Origin: a virus
Virus record (IMG/VR): IMGVR_UViG_3300025154_000068
Location: 19,035 to 83,034 of that record
Length of the DNA: 64,000 bases
Strand: one strand, 5' to 3'
Position numbers and translations under genes: made by a program. Numbering within the stretch: position 1 is the stretch's first letter; every line of letters starts with the position of its first letter. The notes below the pieces were generated by a model, which did no database searches, was not told the DNA's origin, and was given only the letters and a program-made list of their open reading frames with translations. Below are positions 1-38,936 of this stretch, piece after piece.

Positions 1-222
1 TCCGTCGCAGCATCGAAGCATCCCAGACCCCGCTCTTGTCGGCTTCGGGGTGGACGGCTTCGCGGGGGCGGGGACCGCCTTTCCTGCCAAGGGAAGCCTC
101 TCCACTGTCGCTGTTGCGGCCGGTTGCATCGACTTCGTATCGCTCGACTTCGACTTCCCGCAGCAGCAACCGCCAAGGAAGACGGATGCGCCAACAATCG
201 TTACCGCGAGTCGACAAGTCAT
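1..222 (-). CDS. Putative lipoprotein (partial, runs off window start)
   Basis: Read manually: GGAGG RBS, MTCRLAVTIVGASVFLGGCCCGK lipobox-like signal; not in ORF track. Confidence 0.6.
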   Translation of the reverse strand, partial: MTCRLAVTIVGASVFLGGCCCGKSKSSDTKSMQPAATATVERLPLAGKAVPAPAKPSTPKPTRAGSGMLRCCDG

Positions 223-301
223 CGATACCCCCTCCGCGGCCCAGGTTGACCGTGAGTAGGAGCGTACCAGGATCGGCATCTTCGCGATATCTGGATGTCT
301 C

Positions 302-472
302 TTACGCCTGGCCGGGGCGGGTTCTCCAAGTCGTAGACCCGTCGATCGTCCACAACAGGTCGGTGCCCCGTGGCCCCTGAACAAGCGCGACCATGATGGC
401 GATCTGGCGGTGGGGGAAGTCAACGAGCAGCACGCCGCCGGCGCGGGCGGTATCTTCGAAGGTGATGGTCAT
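302..472 (-). CDS. Small hypothetical protein (56 aa)
   Basis: AGGAGG RBS before ATG at 472; MTITFEDTARAGG...RPGQA-stop. Confidence 0.5.
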   Translation of the reverse strand: MTITFEDTARAGGVLLVDFPHRQIAIMVALVQGPRGTDLLWTIDGSTTWRTRPGQA

Positions 473-494
473 GCCCTCCTATCGGACGGCTGCC

Positions 495-868
495 GGATCG
501 GTTGCGTGAAATCGTCCCAGCGACGATTCTTGCTAGAAGGAGGTGCACCGTGCGATTTGATGACGTCGACGACATGCTGTTGCAGAACCTTACGCTGGGA
601 GAACCCGACGAGGCCGCACCAGGCAAGTACTTGGAAAGGGCCCGCGAGATTCTGGACAAGCGCCAGAGGGCGACCGACCGCTACCACATTTTCGTGGACG
701 ATGGAGTTCTCGTCCTGGCTCGTGACCGTGACCGGCTTGGCCAGATTTCCAATCGCTGGCTTCGGAAAGAGATGGCCGCGTTGGGCTAGTGACATTCGAC
801 GTGCTCGCTGGCGCCGGCACCGCCCTTCATCGCTCGACAGGAGGTCGAGGATCGGTTGCGTGAAATCG
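495..868. repeat. 20-bp direct repeat GGATCGGTTGCGTGAAATCG at 495-514 and 849-868
   Basis: Two identical copies flanking the 550-789 ORF. Confidence 0.85.
550..789 (+). CDS. Hypothetical protein
   Basis: Strong AGAAGGAGGT RBS before GTG at 550. Confidence 0.6.
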   Translation: MRFDDVDDMLLQNLTLGEPDEAAPGKYLERAREILDKRQRATDRYHIFVDDGVLVLARDRDRLGQISNRWLRKEMAALG

Positions 869-906
869 ACCGCCCCTGTGCGCCGCGCCAACTTGCACGC
901 TTCGGC

Positions 907-1335
907 TCAGTATCCCCACTTGTCGTCCTTGCGGATGGGCTGGGCGCAGCTCTGCTGTGGACGGGACCTGCAATCCGTGCCGCAACGTCCCACCGGCCGG
1001 TACCATTCGACCCGCGCGCCGTTGATCAAGAACTGGTGATGACAACACGACTCACCCCCGCCGGAGCAGACCGTGTTTGTTCGACCTGTGAATTGATTGG
1101 GTGCTGTTGTCGAGCATTCGACCGATCGCTTCCGGCACTCGTGGTACGTCCACAGTTCGAAGCCGCCCGCAACATCGGCGGTGGAGCGCGGCATCGTCGA
1201 GAACAGGGGATGAACTTGAAGCGATTGGATGTGCGCGCCGCTCCACGCAACGACGTCGCTGTCTCGCACTTCCATGCGCTTGCCGCCGCACCCAGGCATG
1301 GCCATCGTCAGCAGAGTCAACGCGACCCATCTCAT
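907..1335 (-). CDS. Cys-rich lipoprotein
   Basis: MRWVALTLLTMAMPGC lipobox; multiple Cys. Confidence 0.7.
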   Translation of the reverse strand: MRWVALTLLTMAMPGCGGKRMEVRDSDVVAWSGAHIQSLQVHPLFSTMPRSTADVAGGFELWTYHECRKRSVECSTTAPNQFTGRTNTVCSGGGESCCHHQFLINGARVEWYRPVGRCGTDCRSRPQQSCAQPIRKDDKWGY

Positions 1336-1499
1336 GGTGCGAGGCTACCACGAGCGCGACACGAAAAATTGACGCCCCACCCCGAACTTTCTTTCCCAAA
1401 CTGTTGACACCAACAGTTTCTCGACCTATGTTTCTTCTCGTCGGGGCAACCTGACACCGACCCGGCGGAACCGGGAGGTCCTTGAAAACGGAGCTAGAC

Positions 1500-1808
1500 A
1501 TGGTCGAGGTAACCATCCTCATCCCGGTCGCTGACAATGACGGCGACCACTTCACCCCCAACCACCATGCGGCCTTCGAGAGCTTCATCCTCGAACGGTT
1601 CGGTGGCCTGAGTCGAGAGGCTCAAACAATCGAGGGGGTCTGGGAAGACCAGGGTCGCACCTACCGCGACACCAACCTGGTCTACCGGATCGCCATCAAC
1701 TCGATAACGGAAGGGGGGCTGCTGAAGGAAGTCGCAGACTTCGCCAAGCAGCACTACCGACAGGAAGCCATCTTCCTGCGGTACCTAGGGGTCGCCGAGA
1801 TTGTCTAG
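1500..1808 (+). CDS. Hypothetical protein, DUF3574/GlnB-like fold candidate
   Basis: FGGLS...EGVWED...YRQEAIF pattern; GGAG RBS before ATG 1500. Confidence 0.55.
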   Translation: MVEVTILIPVADNDGDHFTPNHHAAFESFILERFGGLSREAQTIEGVWEDQGRTYRDTNLVYRIAINSITEGGLLKEVADFAKQHYRQEAIFLRYLGVAEIV

Positions 1809-1887
1809 CCCCGAGTGAGATGGGGGCCCGCTCGGAGGGGCGGGCCCCTTCTCTCCCCCTTTCCGGACCCGTACGAAGGAGCGCGTC

Positions 1888-2724
1888 ATGGCAACCAAGA
1901 TCGACAAGCACAACACCATCACCGGCGAAACGCTCGAGTACCCGCGCCCGTCGAAGGCCGTTGCGGCGTTCCTCGCCCGCGTCGTCGATGGTGCCAACGA
2001 TCCGAACGTCTCGGAGGCCGAGCTCACCGCGTTGGTCTACGGCAAGGAGAACCCGCTACTCGACCAGACGATGTTCCCCCACCACGGCGCCGTGACGGTG
2101 GCTGTGTTCGCCGATCCGGTCTACCACGTCATGTTGGACCTGCTCGGGCGCAAGCGCGTTCAGGCGGGCACGCTGGACCTGGGGGCGGTGTCCGCGGCGT
2201 CGACGATGACCATCACCGAAGCGGCCGCCGAGCTCGGCGTCACGTCGTCTGCAGTGCGTCAGGCAATCCACGCTCACCGCCTCCCCGCGATCAAGCGCGG
2301 CGGGAGCTACCTGCTGGACCCTCGCGACGTCGCCAGCTTCCGGGTGATGCGGAGGGGGCCGAAGCCTCGAGGCGAGCGCGAGGAGGCCGTGGGGAAGGCG
2401 CCAGCGCCCGAGGAGCGCGAGCCTGACCTACGCCTCCGGATCGGCAACAAGCCCGGCGGAAGCTTTCGTGTGAAGGTCGACGGGTTCGAGGTGACGGGCA
2501 AGGAGGGGAAGGTCGTGGATGGGGTGGTGCGCGAATTCCGCGGGCGCGCCGCGATCGCGTTCAGCGGGAAGGACTCGAACCGGATGATGGTGCTCGAGCC
2601 GGCCGAGGAGGAGGAGAGCTTCGAGATCGGCGGGTTCTATGTGCGGGGGAAGTTCCGGGTCGTCGAGAAGGTGAACAACCCGCGGGAAGCGGCGGAGCGG
2701 TGGAAGGGGTTCAAGGTGGGGTGA
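1888..2724 (+). CDS. Protein with central excisionase-like (HTH_17) DNA-binding domain
   Basis: MTITEAAAELGVTSSAVRQAIHAHRLPAIKRGGSYLLDPRDV; AAGGAG RBS. Confidence 0.75.
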   Translation: MATKIDKHNTITGETLEYPRPSKAVAAFLARVVDGANDPNVSEAELTALVYGKENPLLDQTMFPHHGAVTVAVFADPVYHVMLDLLGRKRVQAGTLDLGAVSAASTMTITEAAAELGVTSSAVRQAIHAHRLPAIKRGGSYLLDPRDVASFRVMRRGPKPRGEREEAVGKAPAPEEREPDLRLRIGNKPGGSFRVKVDGFEVTGKEGKVVDGVVREFRGRAAIAFSGKDSNRMMVLEPAEEEESFEIGGFYVRGKFRVVEKVNNPREAAERWKGFKVG

Positions 2725-2760
2725 TTTCGCGCTGGTCGGGTTTCTGCTATCCGTTGAATC

Positions 2761-3027
2761 ATGGCTACAGCAACGATCAAAGAAGAATACCGGAAGCAGT
2801 ACGGCAAGGCCTCGTTCTTTGGTAGGGTTGCCAACATCGACGAGACAACTTGGGAGGTCGAGTTCTGGCTGATGGAGGATGGGCAGAAGCCGCCCGAGAA
2901 GATGATGCTACCGCTGGCGCACCTTGAGTCCTGCGTTGAGGTTGGGACAGGCGCCACGCTGGAACTCGCTCGGAAGAACAGGGTTGACTACTTCGAGTTG
3001 GCGAAACAGCAAGGCTGGAGAGGGTAA
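2761..3027 (+). CDS. Hypothetical protein
   Basis: 88-aa ORF with protein-like composition following the HTH gene. Confidence 0.6.
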   Translation: MATATIKEEYRKQYGKASFFGRVANIDETTWEVEFWLMEDGQKPPEKMMLPLAHLESCVEVGTGATLELARKNRVDYFELAKQQGWRG

Positions 3028-3332
3028 CAACCCGTCGCCTCACCTGCGAAGCGCCCAAGCCTCAACCCAAGTCGATGGGTTCCACGTCAAAGGCCGTTCC
3101 GCGTCACTGAACGCCTCCCCACCCTGCCGGCACCGTGATCACCCCTCCCCGGCGCATCATCAAATCCACCGCCCCCATCCCAGCACGTGTCGCCAGGCCC
3201 CGCCGTGCTCCGGCCGCAGGTCGACCAGCCGCACGCGCCCCTGATACAGCTCCCACCGCTGGCGCACTTCCTCGATGCACTCTCCAATCCGCGAACACCG
3301 CGACGTGCCGATCCGGCCAATCTGCTGTTGAG

Positions 3333-4031
3333 TCAGACCTCGACGTTCCGCCACCCCTCCGGAACAGTGACGAGCTCGTCACGGTAGCCAAGCATGTCCA
3401 CCTCGATCCAGCCGTCGACCTTGCACGATCCCAGGTAGCACCCGTCCGACCGCACCTCCCACCGTCGGCGCCGCATCGCGCACGCCTGCAGCCCCTTGCG
3501 GCCCGTCTGCCCACCGTCCGCGGTGATGAGGTCGTCTCCGTCCCACCGAATCGCCACGGCCACGTGCATCGGCTTGACGACCTGAATGATGGCACTGGGA
3601 CCAGGGCGAAGTCCGTGCCCGGGCGTCTGCCACGCCCCGCACGTCTTCGCGTAGTCGATTCCAACGCCGAGGCCGGTGCCGATGTCGTCCGCGTACCCGT
3701 CCAGCCAGTCCTCGCAGTCGACCAGCACACGCCTTCCGAGCCCGAGCGCGGTCATGGAGCAAGTGGAGATACCCTCGGTTCGGAGCCTGCCCTCGTCGTC
3801 GCGCCAGCTGTGATAGGGCACGTCGAGGCACCACGCGCCGGGGCCCAGCAGATCCTCGAAGGCACGGCGGGTCTCCAGGCTGCCGGCCTCGAGCCCAACG
3901 CCTGGGTAGAGCTTGGCCCCCATCGTCGACTCGTCGACCGTCGACAGGGCGTTCGCTACCCAGCACCGCCGGACATCGTCGGCGAGTTCCGGGCGAGGGA
4001 TCTGGATGAGGGGGGTGCGCTGGTTGATCAT
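3333..4031 (-). CDS. Putative NlpC/P60-CHAP-like amidase/peptidase
   Basis: STCSMTALG (Cys), MHVAVA (His), ADGGQ; adjacent to endolysin. Confidence 0.55.
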   Translation of the reverse strand: MINQRTPLIQIPRPELADDVRRCWVANALSTVDESTMGAKLYPGVGLEAGSLETRRAFEDLLGPGAWCLDVPYHSWRDDEGRLRTEGISTCSMTALGLGRRVLVDCEDWLDGYADDIGTGLGVGIDYAKTCGAWQTPGHGLRPGPSAIIQVVKPMHVAVAIRWDGDDLITADGGQTGRKGLQACAMRRRRWEVRSDGCYLGSCKVDGWIEVDMLGYRDELVTVPEGWRNVEV

Positions 4032-12991: not shown

Positions 12992-13770
12992 GATTCGGTG
13001 TATCCTTCCTCGCCGACGGTCCCCCGCACGAGGCGGGCTCCTCGAGTTGGCCCAGCGACTCCCCGGCGCCACCACGGCCCGCGGACGTCGTAGATGCCTC
13101 CATCCGAGCAGATGAAGATGGCCTCGAAACAGGTCTCGCCAGCTCCGCGCCACTTGCGGATCGAGCGCTTCAGAGTCTGCCACTCACCAGCCGACAGCTT
13201 GGTACCCCTCGCCCCCCAGGCAGTCCCGTAGCGGCTGTCTCCGCGGATGAAGGTCGGGTCGTCTCGGACGTGGGCGACATCGCCGCCGGTGTGGGCGTAG
13301 TAGTCGATGATGACCCAGAACCGTGACCACTGCGATGGGTCGCCATCGTCGGGCGGGGTCGCAAAGATTCGGACTGGAGCGAGCCAGACGTGGCCCTCGG
13401 ATGTCTCGGGCCAGTTGGTCGGCCAGTCGTCGAGGTTCCAGCGCGGAGCCGCGAAGCCGCACGAGGCGACGCCAGCCAGGATCCCAGGGCCAGTGCCCGC
13501 CCAGGTCCACGTCACCCAGGCATCGCGGAGGCGCACGGCGTAGAGCACCGAGGACTCGCCTGGGGCACGCTGGATCTGGCGCTCCCAGCCAATCAGCGCC
13601 AGCGCGTCCGACGGGGCGTACTCCGGATATCGCACCAGCACGCTCTGAGTCAGGCGCTTCTTCTGCCAGTCGTACTCGGCCGCAAACGCGGTGACCCACT
13701 TCGTCCCCCACGGGCCGCGGAGCCGGGGAGGGGAGAGCACCTCGGTTGCGTATTCGACGAAGGTCGACAT
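12988..13770 (-). CDS. Baseplate wedge protein (P2 gpI/Mu gp48-like)
   Basis: APSDALALIGWERQIQRAPGES..YAVRL; follows J-like gene. Confidence 0.75.
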   Translation of the reverse strand: MSTFVEYATEVLSPPRLRGPWGTKWVTAFAAEYDWQKKRLTQSVLVRYPEYAPSDALALIGWERQIQRAPGESSVLYAVRLRDAWVTWTWAGTGPGILAGVASCGFAAPRWNLDDWPTNWPETSEGHVWLAPVRIFATPPDDGDPSQWSRFWVIIDYYAHTGGDVAHVRDDPTFIRGDSRYGTAWGARGTKLSAGEWQTLKRSIRKWRGAGETCFEAIFICSDGGIYDVRGPWWRRGVAGPTRGARLVRGTVGEEGYTES

Positions 13771-14897
13771 CAGACCTCGGTGACCGTCAGCCCGGCGGAC
13801 GTGCCAACGACGCAAACGAAGCCGCTGGTGGGCACCACGTCAGCCGCCGGGGCGGTTAGATCGGTATTGCGTACCTTGGCGGTGTTGTACTGCAGAGCGT
13901 CGACGAGCTGGGTGAGGTAGGCCGTTCCGTTGATCGATAGGGTGCGGAGGTACGTTTGGAGCTCCGCGAGGGCTTCGGCCTTCGCGGTGCCGCCGAAGCC
14001 GGCGAACGCGAAGATGGTTCCGGTCAGGTCGATTGTCTGGTTGCCGGCGCTCTGGACGGTGACGCTGGTGCAGAGCGGCTTGCGCGCCTGGATCCAGCTG
14101 TTGACGACGCCCACCACTGTTCCGCTCAGCGCACCGTCCGGACCTGCAATGGTCACAATGACGTTACCGTTGCCGTACGGGTCAGTCTCGACCAGGACGC
14201 GGGTGACTTGGGCGGCGTAAGGATGCTCGTTGCGGCACCAGTATAGGTACCAGTCGGAGTTGGCTCCGATCCCAAGCACTGCCCAGCGCGAGCGACAGCG
14301 CTGCTTGAGTAGGGGGTCGGACTCCTCGTCGGTCCCCTGCGTGGTCGCCCACGTTCCCGACCCGTTGTCGATATTCGTCGCGGTGACGCCAACCAGCGTC
14401 GTGAGCATCGACGTGATGGTGCCGATGGCAACGTTGTAGTCGGCTCCCGGGCTCTCGGCTCGGATGGTCAGGTCGAGCGTGCCACCGGATGCGAGCGTGC
14501 CGCCGGTGGTGTTCCAGTATCTCCGAACGCCGTCCGTGAACCAGAGCTGCCCAGCGAGGATGGTGAACGGGCCCTCTCCGGGCGCGCACGTCAGCCGCTC
14601 CTTGCCCTCGGAGTAGGTCGCGGCGTAGCGGGTCAGGCCGTAGACCTCTCGAGCGTAGAGCGTGAGCCAATCGCCGAGCGCGGTCGAGAGGAAGCCGGAT
14701 TTGGCGACCTCGACCTGGGTCTCGGAGTACATCCGAGACTCCTCCGCATCCATCTCGACCATGGTGCGGGCCACACCGCCATCGTTCCAGTCGGTGACGG
14801 GGAAGCTGGCCGCTCCGAGCCTGGCGAGCAGCCGCGCCTTGGCCTCGTCGTTGGTCGAGGAGGTGATCAGGCTTTCGAGCGTGATTGTGACCGTCAT
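13770..14897 (-). CDS. Baseplate J-like protein (Mu gp47-like)
   Basis: TALGDWLTL, AESPGADYN, GTDEESDPLLKQRC motifs. Confidence 0.88.
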   Translation of the reverse strand: MTVTITLESLITSSTNDEAKARLLARLGAASFPVTDWNDGGVARTMVEMDAEESRMYSETQVEVAKSGFLSTALGDWLTLYAREVYGLTRYAATYSEGKERLTCAPGEGPFTILAGQLWFTDGVRRYWNTTGGTLASGGTLDLTIRAESPGADYNVAIGTITSMLTTLVGVTATNIDNGSGTWATTQGTDEESDPLLKQRCRSRWAVLGIGANSDWYLYWCRNEHPYAAQVTRVLVETDPYGNGNVIVTIAGPDGALSGTVVGVVNSWIQARKPLCTSVTVQSAGNQTIDLTGTIFAFAGFGGTAKAEALAELQTYLRTLSINGTAYLTQLVDALQYNTAKVRNTDLTAPAADVVPTSGFVCVVGTSAGLTVTEV

Positions 14898-32091: not shown

Positions 32092-32439
32092 TCAGTAGAT
32101 GGCGTCGGGGTCGGGCTCTTCTTCAGCCCAGGCCGCGTCTCTCGCGATGATCGCTACGGCATCCGCAGGGATGTCGGCGTCGGTCGGAGCGTATGTCGAG
32201 GTTTCGAGCTGGACTCCGACTCGCCGGGCATGCTGGTCGAGGAAGCGGTGCATGAGCCATGCGCTCAGCAGGTCGAGTGGGACATCGCCACCGGGCGCCA
32301 TTCCGACGTCGACCGGAGAGCCGAGCTCCACGCCCGCCCTGACCCGCTCAGCGAGAGGAGTCCGGCCGGTCACGAGGACGGAACCCTTGTCCGTCCAGCG
32401 CACCGTCGTGCCGTCCTCGAACTCCCACTTGTGGATCAC
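32092..32439 (-). CDS. Hypothetical protein, candidate immunity partner of MuF C-terminal domain
   Basis: GTGA overlap with MuF stop; followed by terminator. Confidence 0.55.
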   Translation of the reverse strand: MIHKWEFEDGTTVRWTDKGSVLVTGRTPLAERVRAGVELGSPVDVGMAPGGDVPLDLLSAWLMHRFLDQHARRVGVQLETSTYAPTDADIPADAVAIIARDAAWAEEEPDPDAIY

Positions 32440-34940
32440 GCGTAGCCTCCAAGACAACCGAGCACCCACCAGAAGTGCTCGCTGTCTTCACGGTAAGTCC
32501 AGAACGGGTCGGTCGCCACTTTTTCTGCTCCCATCGAGAGCAGTTCGGTCGCGTCGGCCTGGTAGATCTTCCCGCAGTAGGCGGAGAAGAACTTGTCGGG
32601 CTTGGCAACTTCGCTCCACCCGTACGGGATCCCCGTGAGCGCGCTCAGCGGCTTGGCAACCTCGCCGGCGGTCCGCTTTCCGAGGAATGCAACTGCGGCC
32701 TTATGCACCGAAGCGTTGAGCGTCTCGATGGCGTGCCCCCATTCGTGAATCAGGGACCGCAGGTCGTTGGCGTTGACCCGAGGCGGGGACATCCGGATAT
32801 CGCAGTAGGCCCGTCCGTTGACGAACCGGATCTGGGCCCGGCCGTCGAGCTTCTTGCTCATCATCGCGTCGTAGAACGCCTTGGCTCGATCGAGTCCAGG
32901 CATCTTGCGGGGCCGATTCGTGACCTTGGCTGTGCCCTTTGCTGAGTCGATGTTCGCGATGTGCCCAAGGATCGATGCGACTGCGTTGCCATCGTCGCCC
33001 TTGAGAAGCTCGCGCACGGACTTGTCCGGGTGGGTCTTGGCCGCTTCGACTACCGCTCTGACGCGATCGACGAGAGCCCCGGTCATCGGGCCGTCGTACT
33101 TGTCGAGGGCGTGCTTCTTGGCGATTGCCCCGACTTGCTTCGCGGTCATGTCGAGGCCCCGTTCCTGGGCCGCTCTCCCCCACGCCATCGCACGCGCAGC
33201 GTCGCCGTACTTCGAGAATTCCTTCTCCCAGTGCTCGACGGTGTGCTCAGGCTTCGGCCCCGCGCCCGACTTGGGCTTCGGCCTGGCTTCCGCCTTCTCG
33301 GGCTTCGGTGTCCGCTGAACCGGGCGCTTGTCGAGTCGCTTGAGCCTCGCCTCCAGCTCCTTGCGAATTTCCGGCGGATACTTCTTCGTGTCCGGCTTCC
33401 ACTCTGCAGCATCCGGAGTCAGACCGAACCCATCTTGCGACGGTTCCGTCGAGGGAGTCTTGGTGATGCCCTTGCGCTCGGCCTGTGACTTGCGGATCGA
33501 GCGAACTACACTGCGGCACCCAAAATGCCGAGGGGGGTAGTTCGTCTGCCACCAAGGGTGTTCGGCCGGAAGGATCGTTCCGTCGGCCTGCTCGCACATC
33601 AGCGTCACGCGATTGTCGAGGATCGCGTCGAATTGCCAGAAGGGCCGGACCTTCAGGAGCGCTGGCTCCGTCATCTGCTGGTGCCGACCTGCGTTGTACG
33701 CGAGTTGCACGTTCGTCCGGTAGATGGTATTACCTGTGTACAGACCGTTGATGGTGAAGTAGCCGTGCGCGGTAGAGAGGTTGAACACATGTCCGCGAAA
33801 TGGAACGAAGCGACGCGAGGCAACGTGATCGAACTCTATATTTCTGGCCTCAGCATCAAGCGCGTTGCATTGGAGGTTGGCGCCTCCACTGGATGGGTAG
33901 CCTCCGTGATCTCCTCCGAGGGGCTCACACGATCGCTGCGCGATGCCAGAAGACTGCACTTCGCGCGAGGTGGCAGGCCCTCGCGAGAACGAACCGACCT
34001 GCCTAGAGAACAGATCGTTCAGCGATACGTCTCCGGCGAAAGCGCCAACAGTCTTTGCGGCGCGTTCGGTGTTCACCAGGATACCATCCGGCGCATCGTT
34101 GTGTCTACGGGACTCCACTGGCGCAGCGTCGCAGAAGCCGCAACGCTTCGTGACCACGATCAGATGGCCGCACGCGGCGCAGAATCTAGGAGTCGTAAGG
34201 TTGGCCGGTTCGAAGACGTGATCGCTGATTGGATCTCGCAGCGCGGCGAATTGCCCGAAGCTCAGGTTCCTTGCAGGACGCGCAACATCGACATCGCAAT
34301 TCCCCCCGTCGCCGTGGAAGTCGTCACTGCGTCCGTGAATCCGTTCAACGTTGCCTACCTGCGCAATCGCACCGAAGATCTGCGAGATGGTGGATGGTGG
34401 TGCTGTTACGTGATTATCTCCCAGCGTACCAAGGTGCTGTTGCCCACGGTAGCCGATCAGATCGTCGCCCTCGCGAAGTTGGCCCGCGGCAACCCATCCA
34501 CGGCGCGTGAGCATTGGGTGATTCGGGGTTGCGGAGAACTTGCGGCCCGACGCGGTGACGACCTCGACAAGGGCCCCCTCGAACCACCGTCGATGAGCTG
34601 CCCTTATCACCCCTCCGCTCACAAGGGTGTCCCCGGGTAGGCACTCCACCCGCCACGCCGGATTCACGACGCTCCCAGCCCAGGCATCGAGGAGCTGCTG
34701 ACCCACACGTTTCTTGAAGTCGTCCAGCGTCTCGCCGTTGGCAACGGCCCGGTCGAGAGCGAGCAGGACATCTCGAATCACGTCGGCTTGGGCCACGCCG
34801 GCCACGGTGAACGCCTTGCGCTGAGCCCGTTCGTCGAGCAGGTCCCAAACCTTCTTTCGGACCGGAGTTCGACCGAGCAGCCAAGACGCCGCGGGAGTGA
34901 ACTCCTCGACGTCGGTGGGTGCGGCCCAGGGTGCGTTCAC
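32436..34940 (-). CDS. MuF (SPP1 gp7-like) minor head protein with intein and C-terminal HExxH metallopeptidase-like domain
   Basis: AFTVAGV, TIYRTN..AYNAGR, HPWWQTNYPPRHFGCRS; LIHEWGHAIE...ELLSMG; GTG start overlaps portal stop. Confidence 0.88.
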   Translation of the reverse strand: MNAPWAAPTDVEEFTPAASWLLGRTPVRKKVWDLLDERAQRKAFTVAGVAQADVIRDVLLALDRAVANGETLDDFKKRVGQQLLDAWAGSVVNPAWRVECLPGDTLVSGGVIRAAHRRWFEGALVEVVTASGRKFSATPNHPMLTRRGWVAAGQLREGDDLIGYRGQQHLGTLGDNHVTAPPSTISQIFGAIAQVGNVERIHGRSDDFHGDGGNCDVDVARPARNLSFGQFAALRDPISDHVFEPANLTTPRFCAACGHLIVVTKRCGFCDAAPVESRRHNDAPDGILVNTERAAKTVGAFAGDVSLNDLFSRQVGSFSRGPATSREVQSSGIAQRSCEPLGGDHGGYPSSGGANLQCNALDAEARNIEFDHVASRRFVPFRGHVFNLSTAHGYFTINGLYTGNTIYRTNVQLAYNAGRHQQMTEPALLKVRPFWQFDAILDNRVTLMCEQADGTILPAEHPWWQTNYPPRHFGCRSVVRSIRKSQAERKGITKTPSTEPSQDGFGLTPDAAEWKPDTKKYPPEIRKELEARLKRLDKRPVQRTPKPEKAEARPKPKSGAGPKPEHTVEHWEKEFSKYGDAARAMAWGRAAQERGLDMTAKQVGAIAKKHALDKYDGPMTGALVDRVRAVVEAAKTHPDKSVRELLKGDDGNAVASILGHIANIDSAKGTAKVTNRPRKMPGLDRAKAFYDAMMSKKLDGRAQIRFVNGRAYCDIRMSPPRVNANDLRSLIHEWGHAIETLNASVHKAAVAFLGKRTAGEVAKPLSALTGIPYGWSEVAKPDKFFSAYCGKIYQADATELLSMGAEKVATDPFWTYREDSEHFWWVLGCLGGYA
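33729..34643 (-). mobile_element. Intein in MuF (305 aa; Cys1 ... Gly-Asn / Thr+1)
   Basis: CLPGDTLV block A, ATPNHPMLTRRGW block B, VFNLST..YFTINGLYTGN blocks F/G; removal restores WRVE-TIYRTN. Confidence 0.9.
33789..34640 (+). CDS. Antisense-nested HTH + PD-(D/E)xK/Vsr-like putative homing endonuclease (283 aa)
   Basis: GAGAGG RBS 8 nt before ATG; two HTH-like repeats; EDVIADW..NIDIAIPPVAVEV..LRDGGW; wholly inside intein. Confidence 0.75.
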   Translation: MSAKWNEATRGNVIELYISGLSIKRVALEVGASTGWVASVISSEGLTRSLRDARRLHFARGGRPSRERTDLPREQIVQRYVSGESANSLCGAFGVHQDTIRRIVVSTGLHWRSVAEAATLRDHDQMAARGAESRSRKVGRFEDVIADWISQRGELPEAQVPCRTRNIDIAIPPVAVEVVTASVNPFNVAYLRNRTEDLRDGGWWCCYVIISQRTKVLLPTVADQIVALAKLARGNPSTAREHWVIRGCGELAARRGDDLDKGPLEPPSMSCPYHPSAHKGVPG

Positions 34941-36799
34941 AGGTCCTCGACGACAGCGACGCGTCCCGCGAGCTCCGCCAAGATGGTCGCCTTGTGGGCG
35001 AGTTGCTCGAATGCGGCGTTGTCCTTGACCTGCCCATAGTGCTCGGCGAGCTGCGTCCGAAGACGCTCCGGCCAATCGTCCCCGTCCTCGAGGTCGTCGA
35101 TGAGCTCGAGCAGCTTCGCCACGTCGGGCTCGATGGCGCGGGCGGTCACCTGGGCAGCGTCGGTTGCGATGTCGTCAACGAACTGCTGGCCGTTGATGAC
35201 GCCGGACGCCTTGGCTGGGTCGTCGCCAGAGGCGAGGGTGATAGAGCGCGCCGACAGCTTCGCCTCAATGATGGGTCCGACGATGCGTGGCACTTCGGCT
35301 TGCAGCACCTGGTGGAGCCTTCGCTCAGTTTCCGCCATAGCGTCAGCGACAACCGCGTCCCAGACGGGACGCCGACGGCTCGCCTTGACGTCTTCCGCAT
35401 CGTCCTGTGGCTCTGCGTCGTCCCCTTCGTTCGACGCATCCTCGTCACCTCCGAACTGCGGCGGAACCGGCGCTGGCTCCGACTCCTCCCACTCTGCCCC
35501 TTCCTCAAGAGGCATCCCGAACGTCCGTGCGTACTCGTTCTTGTCCACCGGAGCGCCCAACCCGAGCCACTTCTTCAGCGCGTCAGCGGCCTTGTCCCAC
35601 GTGGTGGCGAGTGCTGCAGTGTCCGCCGGCGGTGTCGTGTCGCGCTTCGGCCAAGGGGCCTTGCGTCCATCGCCGAAGTTGAACGCCGCCCACCACCAGA
35701 TGAGCTGCGACCGAATCGTCGTGGCGCTGGTCTCGTCGTCGGCGCGGATGATGGCCGCCGCCACCGCCGAGTGCACCTGCGCAGCGGCGTAGCTCCCGCC
35801 CTGAACCTCGGTGGAGAGGTTCTGTCCGAGGATGCGAATCGCGATGGCCGCGTTGGCCATGTTGATCTGCGCCTGGAACGTCTCCCAGGTGTCGGCGACA
35901 GCTTCGACGAGCTTCAGATCGTAGCCTGGCGGCGTAACGATCGTTGTGTCCCGCCCGAGGTCGGAGATGTCGCTCGCGAGCTCGTCGCGGTGCTCCCTGG
36001 TCGACCCCTCGTCGGTCGGGAATCCGACGAGCGTGCCCTGCCCGTGGCGCTCCGAATAGCGCCCCCAGTCGTCCCGGCCGTACTCCTTCAGGAGCCACCA
36101 GCGCGATACTGACCGCCACGCTCCTCGCGCCCACGGACGCTTGCTGCCGTACGGCGTGTACAGCAGCCACGTTCCGTCACCGGGGGTGACCTCGAGCTCG
36201 GAGCCGTCCTTCTGCCGAGCGAACCACTTGCGCTTGTCCTGGTCGTACCGAAGCGACGATGGGTGGATGACGTCGAAGCCGGGAGTCCCGTCCTCCCGGT
36301 GGGGGATGAGTCGGATTCCGCTCGGCTGCTCGACGCGCTCCCACGACGCAATCCGACCGACGCCCACACCGAGGATGATGCCCCACTCCATCCACTCGGA
36401 GAGGACGTCCTCGGGGACCATGTCCCACCAGTCCTCCTCGAGCTCCTCGAGCGGGGCGTTGGTATCCTGCTTCGGCGGCTGGAACTCGAGAGGCAGCCCC
36501 AGCAAGCCCCGGACGCGCACCTCGCGCAGACACCCGCTCACTCGGTCGTCGGCGAGAATCTCATCGCACAGCAGAGCGGCAAGCCGGAGGTTGCCGGTGT
36601 CCGCCATCGCCTCCGCACGCTTGATGAGCGTGGGCGACCACTCGATTGACGACGAACGGACGGACGACTCGATGAACGGCGCAGGTTTCGGGATGCGCGG
36701 CACAACAGTCGCAGCGAGCGACACGGCACTGGCGATAGCGAGCACACGCCTCCCCACTTGCGTGAGAGTCGTCGATGCTCTGGTTCGCCAGTGGGTCAT
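34937..36799 (-). CDS. Portal protein (Mu gp29/DUF935-like)
   Basis: WGRYSERHG, ILGQNLSTE..GSYAAAQVH. Confidence 0.9.
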   Translation of the reverse strand: MTHWRTRASTTLTQVGRRVLAIASAVSLAATVVPRIPKPAPFIESSVRSSSIEWSPTLIKRAEAMADTGNLRLAALLCDEILADDRVSGCLREVRVRGLLGLPLEFQPPKQDTNAPLEELEEDWWDMVPEDVLSEWMEWGIILGVGVGRIASWERVEQPSGIRLIPHREDGTPGFDVIHPSSLRYDQDKRKWFARQKDGSELEVTPGDGTWLLYTPYGSKRPWARGAWRSVSRWWLLKEYGRDDWGRYSERHGQGTLVGFPTDEGSTREHRDELASDISDLGRDTTIVTPPGYDLKLVEAVADTWETFQAQINMANAAIAIRILGQNLSTEVQGGSYAAAQVHSAVAAAIIRADDETSATTIRSQLIWWWAAFNFGDGRKAPWPKRDTTPPADTAALATTWDKAADALKKWLGLGAPVDKNEYARTFGMPLEEGAEWEESEPAPVPPQFGGDEDASNEGDDAEPQDDAEDVKASRRRPVWDAVVADAMAETERRLHQVLQAEVPRIVGPIIEAKLSARSITLASGDDPAKASGVINGQQFVDDIATDAAQVTARAIEPDVAKLLELIDDLEDGDDWPERLRTQLAEHYGQVKDNAAFEQLAHKATILAELAGRVAVVEDL

Positions 36800-36803
36800 T
36801 CGG

Positions 36804-38936
36804 TTACCGTCTGCTTCCGCCTCGCGCTGACCTGCTCGATGGTCGGCCCCGCCGGAGTCCGTCGTAGTCCTGGAGCTTCTTGTTCAGGTCGAGGGCAGTG
36901 ATGCCCCACACGAGAGCGTCGACCCTGTCTGGCGATGTCTCATCGTTCGCTGGGTCCCATCCGCACTGCTGGTCCTCGAGCTTCGGCAGCGTTCCCACGT
37001 GGTGGACTCTTCCCTTCTCGTAAAGGGTCGAGATCGGGTCTGCCCGGGTTGCCTTGCCCCGCGACGCGTGAACGGCCTTGAACGGCACACCCTGGCGCTC
37101 GGCTTGGACGTTGCGCTCGACAAGGTCTCCACCGTTGTTGACCTCGCCGATGATGTAGTCCGCTTCCCAGCGGTCGAAGGCCTCGAGAGCTCGCGCTGCC
37201 CATTGCGCTGGCGAGAAGACCCCGGAGAGGTCATCGAGAACGTAGGCGTGCCCGTCCTCGCCCAGGCCGACGACGATGATGCCGGTCTCGTTGCTCTTCG
37301 GGTTGGTCGATACCGCCGGGTCGATGGCGACGACCACCCGCCGCATGGGCGGGAGCGCGGGCGAGTACGACCCATCGTCATTGACCCTGAGTCGAAGGTC
37401 ATCAATCCGAGTGCGCTGCCAGAGCGCGTTCGGGTTGTCCTCGAGAATCTCGGCATCGATTTCCTGCCTGCCGAGCCTCGTCCCCTCGTACTCGGTGAGG
37501 ATGGAGGCGAAGAACGGCTTAGCGAGGTTCGACCGATTCTCGTAGGTCGAGCCCTTCGTAAGGGCGACATCCGCGCCTGCACGCTTGACGAGCTTCTTGA
37601 TCGTCGCGATCGGCCTGGGCGTCGTCGTGACGATGCCTTGCGGATTCGTTCCGAGCCGGAACCCGAACTGCAGCTGCGTCCACGCTTCCTGGAAGCGCCA
37701 GGCCGCAACTTCGTCCGCCCAAAACGTGTCGCAGTTGTGAACGAGAATCCCGTTGGCGAAGTACTCCGGCAGGCCCTCAACCGTGAGGTTGAACACCCGT
37801 CGAACGCCAACGTGCTCCCAGGTTGACGCAACGCTGACTGCAGTACCGTCCGCGCCTTGACACGAACTCTCGCCCGCAGTGCTCGCACTTCCGGGTGCTC
37901 CTTCTGGCCTCGTCCGCGCGCTTCTGTTGGCACGCAGGGCACGCCGATGTGAAGCCGCCCCGCTTCCTGGGGAATGGCTTGCCGCAGTCCGAACAATCGA
38001 TGTCGAACACCTCTCGTGACTCGACGTGCCTGTCGTAGTGCGTTCTGGGTGGCACGCACTCGAGGTTCTCGATCGCGTTGTTCGCCCGGTTGCCGTCCTT
38101 GTGATGGATGTGCCAACCAGGCGGGATCGGCCCGAGTTCCTGCTCCCAGATGACCCGGTGTTGGATGTAGTGGCGACCGTTCGCGTAGCCGATGACGTAT
38201 CCGTTCGCTCCAACGCGCCAACGAATACCCTCAAGCCCTTCGTCAGCTTGCCGAGTGGTACCCATTGTTCGCAAGATAAGACCGGATGATCGGCTGTGCC
38301 AGTGAGAGAAGCCCCGTTTGAGAAGCTGACGACGCCTACCTCGGCATCGTTCGAACCCGTTGCTACAACCGGTCGAAGACCATGTCTCGTTACGACCAAA
38401 TCGCCAACGGCAATGGCCTCGATCGGTCTGGGCCCCGCCTCGGTCTCGACAAGCGTTCCAGCGACGAAGCACTGCGGACCGCGCAGTCGATCGGGTCGGT
38501 CGGCCGACAGGATGGTGGCAACAGCCCCGTTGGGCCATGTCAGCCGCCGCTTCGATGGCTCGTAGTGCGGCTTGAACCACGGAGGCGAGATCGTCAGAAG
38601 TCCCGACTCGCCCTCGAGCATGACGTCGCGCGCATCCGCGGACGTCGCTGCGATCAGGGTGATTCGCTTGGACTCACCTGATTCAACCTTGCCTCGGATC
38701 CACTCGGCGCCAGTGCGGGTTTTCCCGAACCCGCGGCCCGCGAGGATGACCCAGATGACCCACGCCCACACGGGCGGGAGCTGCTTGTCGCGAGCCCAGA
38801 GACCTTGCCAGTCATACAGAAGCGTCCGAGCCGCTTCGTCCGGCAGCGTCGCTATCGCTTGCCGTACCTGGCTCGGACTCATCTGGCGGAGCAAGCTTCG
38901 CAATCGCTTCTGCGAGCTGGCTCCTTGCATCATCAA
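36804..38936 (-). CDS. terL: Terminase large subunit with intein (start may be ATG 38882)
   Basis: Walker A AGRGFGKT, Walker B FWADE, nuclease VAIDPA, SPDRVDAL. Confidence 0.95.
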   Translation of the reverse strand: MMMQGASSQKRLRSLLRQMSPSQVRQAIATLPDEAARTLLYDWQGLWARDKQLPPVWAWVIWVILAGRGFGKTRTGAEWIRGKVESGESKRITLIAATSADARDVMLEGESGLLTISPPWFKPHYEPSKRRLTWPNGAVATILSADRPDRLRGPQCFVAGTLVETEAGPRPIEAIAVGDLVVTRHGLRPVVATGSNDAEVGVVSFSNGASLTGTADHPVLSCEQWVPLGKLTKGLRVFVGALERTDTSSATRTVATTSNTGSSGSRNSGRSRLVGTSITRTATGRTTRSRTSSACHPERTTTGTSSHERCSTSIVRTAASHSPGSGAASHRRALRANRSARTRPEGAPGSASTAGESSCQGADGTAVSVASTWEHVGVRRVFNLTVEGLPEYFANGILVHNCDTFWADEVAAWRFQEAWTQLQFGFRLGTNPQGIVTTTPRPIATIKKLVKRAGADVALTKGSTYENRSNLAKPFFASILTEYEGTRLGRQEIDAEILEDNPNALWQRTRIDDLRLRVNDDGSYSPALPPMRRVVVAIDPAVSTNPKSNETGIIVVGLGEDGHAYVLDDLSGVFSPAQWAARALEAFDRWEADYIIGEVNNGGDLVERNVQAERQGVPFKAVHASRGKATRADPISTLYEKGRVHHVGTLPKLEDQQCGWDPANDETSPDRVDALVWGITALDLNKKLQDYDGLRRGRPSSRSARGGSRR
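37734..38471 (-). mobile_element. Intein in TerL (246 aa; Cys1 ... His-Asn / Cys+1)
   Basis: CFVAGTLV, GTADHPV, VFNLTVEGLPEYFANGILVHN; removal restores LRGPQ-CDTFWADE. Confidence 0.93.
37777..38265 (-). CDS. Frame-shifted nested HNH endonuclease with C-terminal Zn fingers (162 aa)
   Basis: QHRVIWEQELGPIPPGWHIHHKDGNRANNAIENLECV; four CxxC/CxxxC motifs; different frame from intein, wholly inside it. Confidence 0.85.
   Translation of the reverse strand: MGTTRQADEGLEGIRWRVGANGYVIGYANGRHYIQHRVIWEQELGPIPPGWHIHHKDGNRANNAIENLECVPPRTHYDRHVESREVFDIDCSDCGKPFPRKRGGFTSACPACQQKRADEARRSTRKCEHCGREFVSRRGRYCSQRCVNLGARWRSTGVQPHG

Follow-up and report, generated by a model that had tools for sequence, protein, structure and literature searches.

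Two inteins of a viral packaging module enclose putative homing-endonuclease genes in a shifted frame and on the antisense strand

Results

Two intein-bearing genes in one packaging module

We analysed a 64,000-nucleotide (nt) stretch (hereafter the window, to which all coordinates refer) of the IMG/VR groundwater metagenome virus IMGVR_UViG_3300025154_000068. Two genes of its packaging module, those for the terminase large subunit (TerL) and for a MuF-like head morphogenesis protein, each carry an intein, and each intein in turn encloses a second open reading frame (ORF): a gene for an HNH endonuclease in a shifted frame of the TerL intein, and a predicted homing-endonuclease gene on the opposite strand of the MuF intein. 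Both intein-bearing genes, and the portal gene that lies between them (34937..36799, minus strand, placed from the ORF list and the gene order), are on the minus strand, and the order TerL-portal-MuF is the same in relatives; the whole 64-kb stretch had no match when it was compared with a phage collection by megablast. A preliminary description of the window had proposed the two inteins and their nested ORFs: Pfam matches, empty sites in homologues and the ORF coordinates place all four where it had put them.

The TerL gene (36804..38936, minus strand) encodes a precursor of 710 amino acids (aa) that matches Pfam Terminase_6N (expectation value, E, 1.4e-22) and Terminase_6C (E 2.9e-12). Its intein (37734..38471, minus strand; aa 156-401, 246 aa) reads CFVAGT...ILVHN and is followed by Cys at the +1 position. 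Hint_2 matches at 38.8 bits against a cut-off of 28.4 (E 1.5e-9), Intein_splicing is also matched, and the marks of a class 1 intein are present: an N-terminal Cys (Cys1, C156), the T-x-x-H of block B (TADHP), the His-Asn of the C-terminal VHN, and the +1 Cys. The insertion point lies directly upstream of the Walker B-type ADEV motif. Homologues without an intein match the window TerL in two pieces by tblastn; for example, the intein-free TerL of a Brevundimonas phage matches residues 26-155 and 403-691 of the window protein with its own residues 36-164 and 166-471, and the alignment opens no gap on the Brevundimonas side.

The MuF-like gene (32436..35075, minus strand; longest ORF, 879 aa; Pfam Phage_Mu_F, E 2.5e-15) contains the second intein at 33729..34643 (minus strand; aa 145-449, 305 aa), which is recognised from a model of the Hint fold and from empty sites in homologues. 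It reads CLPGDT...LYTGN with Thr at +1, and Cys1 (C145), block B (TPNHP), the terminal Asn (N449) and the +1 nucleophile are kept in 27 aligned relatives. The Pfam Intein_splicing match to this protein is below threshold. In an AlphaFold2 model of the intein, residues 1-66 and 268-305 have a predicted local distance difference test score (pLDDT) of 84-95 and residues 140-267 a pLDDT of 30-53; the top Foldseek matches of the model are all intein splicing domains, among them that of Mtu RecA (2imz_A; probability 1.00, root-mean-square deviation 2.5 Å). The MuF protein of Meiothermus phage MMP7 lacks the intein exactly, around window residues 144/450.

A gene for an HNH endonuclease in the −1 frame of the TerL intein

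The nested HNH gene (37777..38265, minus strand; 162 aa) runs from an ATG at 38265 to a stop at 37777 on the same strand as TerL, in its −1 frame (offset 2). Its product matches Pfam HNH_3 (PF13392; E 4.7e-18, 65 bits against a cut-off of 24.8) and PHROG 15471 (E 1.3e-18), as well as 22 PHROG families in all, almost all of them labelled HNH endonuclease. The HNH motif, HIHHKDGNRANNAIENLE...H, lies at about 38041-38160 and is followed by four Cys pairs; a phmmer comparison of the protein with the Protein Data Bank (PDB) returned I-HmuI (1u3e) alone, at E 0.57. Over approximately 37830..38215 (minus strand) the TerL frame itself is a stop-free read-through of the HNH gene, an in-frame linker of which 75% is Ser (21%), Thr (18%), Arg (15%), Ala (12%) and Gly (9%). 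The HNH frame is open for 136 codons upstream of the window ATG. In most HNH relatives the ATG is preceded by an AGGAGG-like Shine-Dalgarno motif, which favours internal initiation.

A predicted nuclease gene antisense to the MuF intein

The second nested gene (33789..34640, plus strand; 283 aa) lies in exact codon register with the MuF intein, and its identification as a homing-endonuclease gene rests on Pfam helix-turn-helix (HTH) matches, on an AlphaFold2 model, on a weak Foldseek match and sub-threshold Pfam MTES_1575 matches (see Discussion), and on a codon signature that is described below. HTH_28, HTH_23 and HTH_58 match in the first half of the protein. The model, built from an alignment with ten relatives, has a mean pLDDT of 83.6 and predicts two three-helix DNA-binding (HTH) domains at about aa 7-135, followed by a core at about aa 142-234; in the modelled core, of topology α-β-β-β-α-β, D168 and E177 are invariant. 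When PDB sequences were searched with the protein by phmmer and by profile, only HTH proteins and repeats were found, and an EDxHD motif is not evident in the protein.

The signals of this gene are written in codons of the intein. A GAGAGG ribosome-binding motif and the ATG, 8 nt downstream of it, occupy 33775..33791 (plus strand): the motif lies within the block F codons for N-L-S-T, and the ATG arises where the CAT codon of the block F His is read on the other strand. This His is encoded by CAT in 22 of 27 relatives and by CAC, which yields a GTG, in three others; CAT makes up 15% of the His codons of the window. The TAG stop (34638..34640, plus strand) lies opposite intein codon 2 (Leu, CTA) and is complementary to it; at this intein position 25/27 relatives have CTA or TTA, codons that account for 1% of the Leu codons in window genes. 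Ribosome-binding motif, start and stop all lie in block F and intein codon 2, and hence inside the mobile DNA. The C-terminal part of the nuclease and the Hint N-lobe overlap over about 64 codons (34446..34637, both strands), which pairs helix 3 and a β-hairpin of the nuclease (WVIRG) with blocks A-B of the intein (TPNHP).

Both layouts are conserved in families of relatives

For the HNH gene we assembled 85 loci: 80 from IMG/VR, four phage records and the window. At 72 of the 85, spanning a G+C content (GC) of 0.30-0.67, an ORF of 300 aa or more surrounds the HNH ORF, and the two frames stand in the same relation as in the window. Intein blocks (Cys1, T-x-x-H) are present in every one of the 50 distinct proteins that enclose an HNH gene, and nearly all end the intein in (H/S)N followed by C, S or T. 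The enclosing frame is open at 51 of 60 distinct HNH loci, against 14.8 expected; the other same-strand frame, used as a control, is open in 2/60 against 0.9 expected. HNH relatives that are not enclosed have 5-12 stops in the corresponding frame.

The antisense family extends to 299 tblastn-confirmed IMG/VR stretches and to 383 protein clusters with E up to 1e-30. The 66 distinct IMG/VR loci are uniform (66/66): each has an ORF of 400 aa or more, nearly always with TPNHP, within which the nuclease ORF lies on the antisense strand in register 0. The length of the intein is nearly constant (303-309 aa in most relatives). By tblastn, antisense matches also fall within the annotated head morphogenesis gene of Gordonia, Vibrio, Pseudomonas and Cronobacter phages, and the layout is kept in an E. 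coli phage as well. Vibrio phage vB_VaM_H2 (GC 0.45) keeps the frames of both strands free of stops for 262 codons, for which the chance is about 6e-6, given that TTA, CTA and TCA make up 4.5% of codons in neighbouring genes. The preliminary description had suspected that such elements are widespread, and these counts agree with it; its further proposal, that the nuclease genes may enter in any frame that stays open, does not fit loci that are all −1 for the 72 enclosed HNH genes and all antisense in register 0 for the VSR-like family. A single geometry in each family points instead to a few old captures that spread as units, not to frequent invasion in arbitrary frames.

Escherichia phage Snoke (MK931441.1, L174) provides a cultured member of the antisense family: at 1504-2313 of locus L174 (minus strand of the locus) it has a 269-aa antisense ORF with HTH regions and a ...NLDFAVGSVAVEV... 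nuclease motif. The Snoke record annotates the MuF-type intein as a mature peptide and leaves the antisense ORF unannotated. The same holds more widely, as the preliminary description had anticipated for standard annotation: in none of the GenBank records that we examined is the nested gene annotated.

Selection acts on the nuclease frames in the middle of the inteins

Codon-position comparisons indicate which frame is constrained where. In the middle of the TerL intein, the HNH frame gives BLOSUM alignment scores that exceed those of the intein frame 3-10 times, and between the window and relative L013 the differences at HNH codon positions 1/2/3 are 0.33/0.20/0.51. Position 2 of the intein frame is thus the most variable, which is not the pattern of a protein under selection.

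For the MuF intein we compared 27 aligned inteins (351 pairs). Opposite the nuclease tail (sense residues 1-51) the differences are 0.34 at sense position 1 and 0.47 at sense position 3, and the sense (Hint) frame dominates; opposite nuclease helix 3 (residues 52-66) they are balanced, at 0.50 and 0.51. The antisense gene dominates opposite the nuclease core (residues 67-144; 0.52 and 0.42) and opposite the HTH domains (residues 145-267; 0.67 and 0.57), and the Hint frame does so again opposite the start of the nuclease gene (residues 268-305; 0.38 and 0.58). The signature therefore changes strand near sense residues 52-66, and the AlphaFold2 model of the intein, with its two confident Hint lobes and low-pLDDT middle, is in agreement. 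Across the ~64-codon overlap, the antisense position 1/2/3 differences between the window and L010 are 0.27/0.06/0.19: the sense frame dominates here and position 2 is almost frozen. The sole conserved island of the sense middle, DFHGD, is the complement of a strand of the nuclease that reads AVEV. Judged by these patterns, the nuclease frames are selected in the middles of both inteins and the Hint frame at their ends, and the intein frame of the middles is kept only free of stops. The nucleases are separate genes and not domains of the inteins, and the in-frame middle behaves as an unconstrained linker that splicing would discard, both as the preliminary description had it.

The two inteins are independent and vary in presence

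In the closest relatives, G001 and G002, a TerL that is 65% identical overall contains the TerL intein with its HNH gene, and the MuF gene has an exact empty site, ...NPAWRLE|TIFRTN.... In addition, 10 virus records have the MuF intein without a nested relative of the window HNH gene. Comparison of these sequences indicates that the two inteins are independent elements, since G001 and G002 combine a TerL intein with an empty MuF site; the preliminary description had called them independent too. A functional link between the two inteins, which we considered, is rejected because they occur independently. Presence and absence at the exact MuF site is thus sporadic among close relatives, as is looked for in a homing element.

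Loss of the nuclease has also left traces. The antisense ORF has decayed in Pseudomonas phage BR313c and in Cronobacter phage ES2, and in both the intein frame is open. Four IMG/VR relatives of the TerL intein (L020-L023) have a stop within the matched HNH frame and an open, 745-aa intein-bearing TerL frame; they look like cases of nuclease decay with the intein retained. Decay of the nuclease under an open intein frame is what a homing cycle predicts, and the patterns seen in these sequences are such as two independent homing elements would leave at different points of that cycle.

Members of the antisense family are not all inserted at one position. Inteins of the window type stand before T-I-Y-R-T-N, those of Gordonia phages Vivi2 and Malisha, Vibrio phage H2 and Snoke are at N-C-(R/K)-C, and the MuF intein of L012 is in yet another site context; one intein/nuclease family thus uses two or more MuF insertion sites, and the unit has switched sites.

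Two further records are of interest for the TerL element. In Vibrio phage 1.245.O (NC_055736.1, L009; region 1-3449) the annotated TerL coding sequence ends at 2597, an HNH relative lies unenclosed at 2501-2983, and a separate 'hedgehog/hint domain protein' occupies 3132-3449; the TerL/HNH arrangement may exist here in a fractured, split-intein form. In L183 (G004, IMGVR_UViG_3300031576_000014, 94.6 kb), a 1048-aa ORF matches only the N-lobe of the TerL intein, at about 13764-13988 (E 7e-5), which suggests a second intein, in a different protein, besides the MuF intein of that virus.

Other features of the MuF gene

The longest MuF ORF begins at a TTG at 35075 and shares about 140 nt with the end of the portal gene. 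Homology to relatives starts near residue 47, and the true start is therefore probably further downstream. Past the Mu F domain, at 32436-33400 (minus strand), the protein has an extension of about 300 residues with an HExxH-type motif, LIHEWGHAIE; it resembles MuF proteins that are fused to toxin or metallopeptidase domains. A small ORF (32092-32469) comes after this C-terminal extension.

Discussion

The anatomy of the two loci, its conservation, the selection signatures and the presence/absence polymorphism are, with good confidence, explained by two unrelated mobile inteins, each of which combines a splicing domain with a separately translated homing-endonuclease gene; from them we infer splicing, nuclease activity, antisense transcription and homing of both elements. 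The intein frames would be translated within TerL and MuF, and protein splicing would then excise the inteins, together with a linker of 120-200 residues whose sequence would be irrelevant: it is the nuclease gene read in the wrong frame or from the wrong strand. The HNH enzyme would be translated from its internal ATG, at −1 on the terL message, and the HTH-HTH-PD-(D/E)xK enzyme from an antisense transcript whose ribosome-binding site, ATG and stop are supplied by block F and codon 2. Presumably each nuclease cleaves the allele without an intein in a phage that infects the same cell, and repair would copy intein and nuclease gene together. Selection acts on the Hint frame towards the ends of each intein; in the middle it acts on the nuclease frame, and on the intein frame only by keeping stops out. 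Of the claims in the preliminary description, the mechanism that it proposed is the best supported; its 'any frame' and its suggestion of novelty (see below) are not upheld.

Several observations weigh against this scheme. The window ATG of the HNH gene lacks a Shine-Dalgarno-like motif, and a plus-strand, sigma-70-like promoter was not found upstream of the antisense gene, with a consensus that may not be that of the host. The 16 sequencing runs listed for the MuF intein stretch (7 studies, some of which may represent the source sample) are all groundwater or soil DNA metagenomes, with no RNA run among them. The penultimate residue of the MuF intein is Gly (YTGN), not His; it is Gly, Ser or Ala in 27/27 aligned relatives of this subfamily, and a penultimate His is not universal among inteins. 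The closest Foldseek counterpart of the antisense model, the catalytic domain of I-Bth0305I (3r3p_B), is matched weakly (probability 0.91, E 0.096), and Pfam MTES_1575, a PD-(D/E)xK family, is matched by 8/15 members of the antisense family, always below the cut-off. A PD-(D/E)xK-like nuclease is, for these reasons, likely but not proven. The window taken alone is also unremarkable as regards chance. With the HNH protein and codon usage held fixed in synonymous shuffles, the TerL frame would remain open with a probability of 0.21 at the local GC of 61-65%, and the antisense register, which closes only at TTA, CTA and TCA (0.2% of codons in the window's other genes), with a probability of about 0.54 over 283 codons. 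Finally, the antisense family was searched for with two patterns, one of them derived from block B by complementing it, and this sample leans to nested copies.

The probabilities for the window alone are what could be said for nested ORFs that are simply chance open frames of GC-rich DNA, or else assembly frameshifts, which we find scarcely credible. Domain matches are strong, the layout recurs in homologues of GC 0.30-0.47, differences are spread over the codon positions as in coding sequence, and the MuF intein stretch recurs across the listed runs, the source sample perhaps included. It is the family comparison, not the window, that takes the layout beyond chance; at the level of the families chance is excluded, and this explanation is refuted by the comparative data. 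Production of the HNH enzyme by −1 ribosomal frameshifting, as a fusion to the N-extein and the N-lobe of the intein, would agree with the constant −1 offset of all enclosed relatives, with the same offset of an unrelated endonuclease VII-like gene in Gordonia phage Affeca, and with a window ATG that has an open frame, and no Shine-Dalgarno motif, upstream of it. It is nevertheless very unlikely, as no slippery heptamer is seen in the window between block B and the HNH ATG, the HNH frame opens just 2-3 codons before the homology begins in several relatives (L019 and L030 among them), and most relatives have an ATG with an AGGAGG-like motif. On these three grounds we reject frameshifting as a general route.

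The history of the elements admits more latitude. If the inteins were fixed, vertically inherited passengers, in which intact nuclease genes no longer drive homing and are relics on the way to mini-inteins, then the relatives that lost the nuclease ORF and kept the intein frame, the missing ribosome-binding motif of the window HNH gene and the missing sigma-70-like promoter would all be accounted for, and some groups of VSR-like inteins do look vertically inherited (bioRxiv 10.1101/2025.01.02.630785). Both window ORFs, however, are full length with catalytic motifs, the coding signature of the nuclease frame holds over deep divergence, the choice of start and stop codons is held against codon bias, and close relatives differ in the MuF intein at an exact empty site; we consider a purely passenger existence improbable. 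Somewhat less improbable, although still unlikely, is that free-standing nuclease genes often invade mini-inteins, in whichever frame happens to stay open. At least four kinds of nuclease are found out of frame or antisense, namely HNH_3, the endonuclease VII-like enzyme of Affeca, and the VSR-like and LAGLIDADG enzymes of the preprint just cited, in which an origin of this kind is proposed. Frequent invasion does not sit well with one geometry per family (72 loci at −1; 66/66 antisense in register 0), nor with an intein length that hardly varies: both argue for rare captures, after which the whole spread as a unit.

Within the scheme of two mobile inteins with separate nuclease genes, we entertain a more specific and more tentative proposal for the antisense family, to which we would give slightly less than an even chance. 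The VSR-like nuclease may be bound to its intein as an obligate resident of the antisense strand and may not have invaded it recently. Conserved codons of the intein itself spell out the ribosome-binding site, ATG and stop of the nuclease gene. Two folded parts would then be encoded by about 64 codons, and the unit would have spread for a long time, from phages of Actinobacteria to those of Enterobacteria and into at least two MuF sites. If true, this would be a long and conserved antiparallel overprint, and one that needs an antisense promoter inside a late structural operon.

The design itself is not new, a point that the preliminary description had left unconfirmed. Gosselin, Arsenault and Gogarten (bioRxiv 10.1101/2025.01.02.630785) describe actinophage inteins with antisense LAGLIDADG and antisense VSR-like nucleases, as well as an endonuclease VII-like nuclease 'in reading frame 3', in genes for minor capsid proteins, TerL and others; they propose the capture of free-standing nucleases as the origin, and they trace antisense LAGLIDADG inteins to reports of 1998 and 2002. 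The window elements are two more members of the layouts described in 2025. Our tblastn searches found matches in the Gordonia phages Vivi2, Affeca, Angelicage and Malisha of that data set. The MuF intein shares with their antisense VSR-like inteins a MuF-like host gene, an antisense nuclease gene and an open host frame, and the nearest solved structure is 3R3P (I-Bth0305I) for both, by HHpred in their work and by Foldseek in ours. It differs in that the window derives from a groundwater metagenome virus and not from an actinophage isolate, in its T-I-Y-R-T-N site as opposed to the N-C-R/K-C site of Vivi2, Malisha, the Vibrio phage and Snoke, and in belonging to a subfamily that ends in YTGN followed by Thr, with an antisense ORF that crosses block B to reach intein codon 2. 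The closest parallel to the TerL element is the TerL intein of Affeca, which has a same-strand nuclease at offset 2 and an intein frame that is open across it; Affeca also has an antisense MuF intein, so that double occupancy occurs there too. In contrast to Affeca, the window nuclease is of the HNH_3 type (an I-HmuI-like motif plus Cys pairs) instead of a CxxC...DHDH endonuclease VII, and the TerL family and the insertion site are different.

Other arrangements are related more loosely. In the 'fractured genes' of Dassa et al. 2009 (PMC2677866), the halves of a split intein flank a free-standing gene for a Vsr-like or GIY-YIG endonuclease, with short overlaps between the nuclease gene and intein coding sequence. 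The phage context, the free-standing nuclease at the endonuclease slot and, probably, the Vsr-like/PD-(D/E)xK superfamily recur here; unlike fractured genes, which consist of two ORFs joined by trans splicing, the window inteins are in one piece, and they stay unbroken since the nuclease gene puts no stop into the intein frame. The ShiLan domain of Arsenault et al. 2025 (PMC11855218) is an out-of-frame HNH insertion in a mycobacteriophage DNA methylase: as in the window, an HNH gene in a second frame leaves the host frame open and has a start without a clear ribosome-binding site. ShiLan has no splicing domain and its read-through stays in the mature protein, whereas here it would be removed with the intein. 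Canonical LAGLIDADG and HNH inteins have the same Hint domain, the same slot between blocks B and F and presumably the same homing logic, but in them the nuclease is a domain of the intein, whereas here a second frame or the opposite strand encodes it as a polypeptide of its own. In Gosselin 2025, Arsenault 2025 and Dassa 2009 we found no mention of an out-of-frame HNH_3 gene within an intein, of a spread that goes far beyond actinophages, of one constant geometry in each family, or of the hard-wired start and stop.

These elements indicate that a single polypeptide does not have to contain both the intein and its homing nuclease: because splicing discards the read-through of the host frame, the nuclease may be housed in another frame or on the other strand. 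They are an unbroken counterpart to the split-intein fractured genes, and they support the view of intein origins in which splicing came first and the nuclease was captured later. Annotation pipelines miss the nested nucleases and would call such inteins endonuclease-free, and the sizes of the two families suggest that the layout is common in phages well beyond the actinophages. For expression and homing studies, the E. coli phage Snoke offers a tractable, cultured system.

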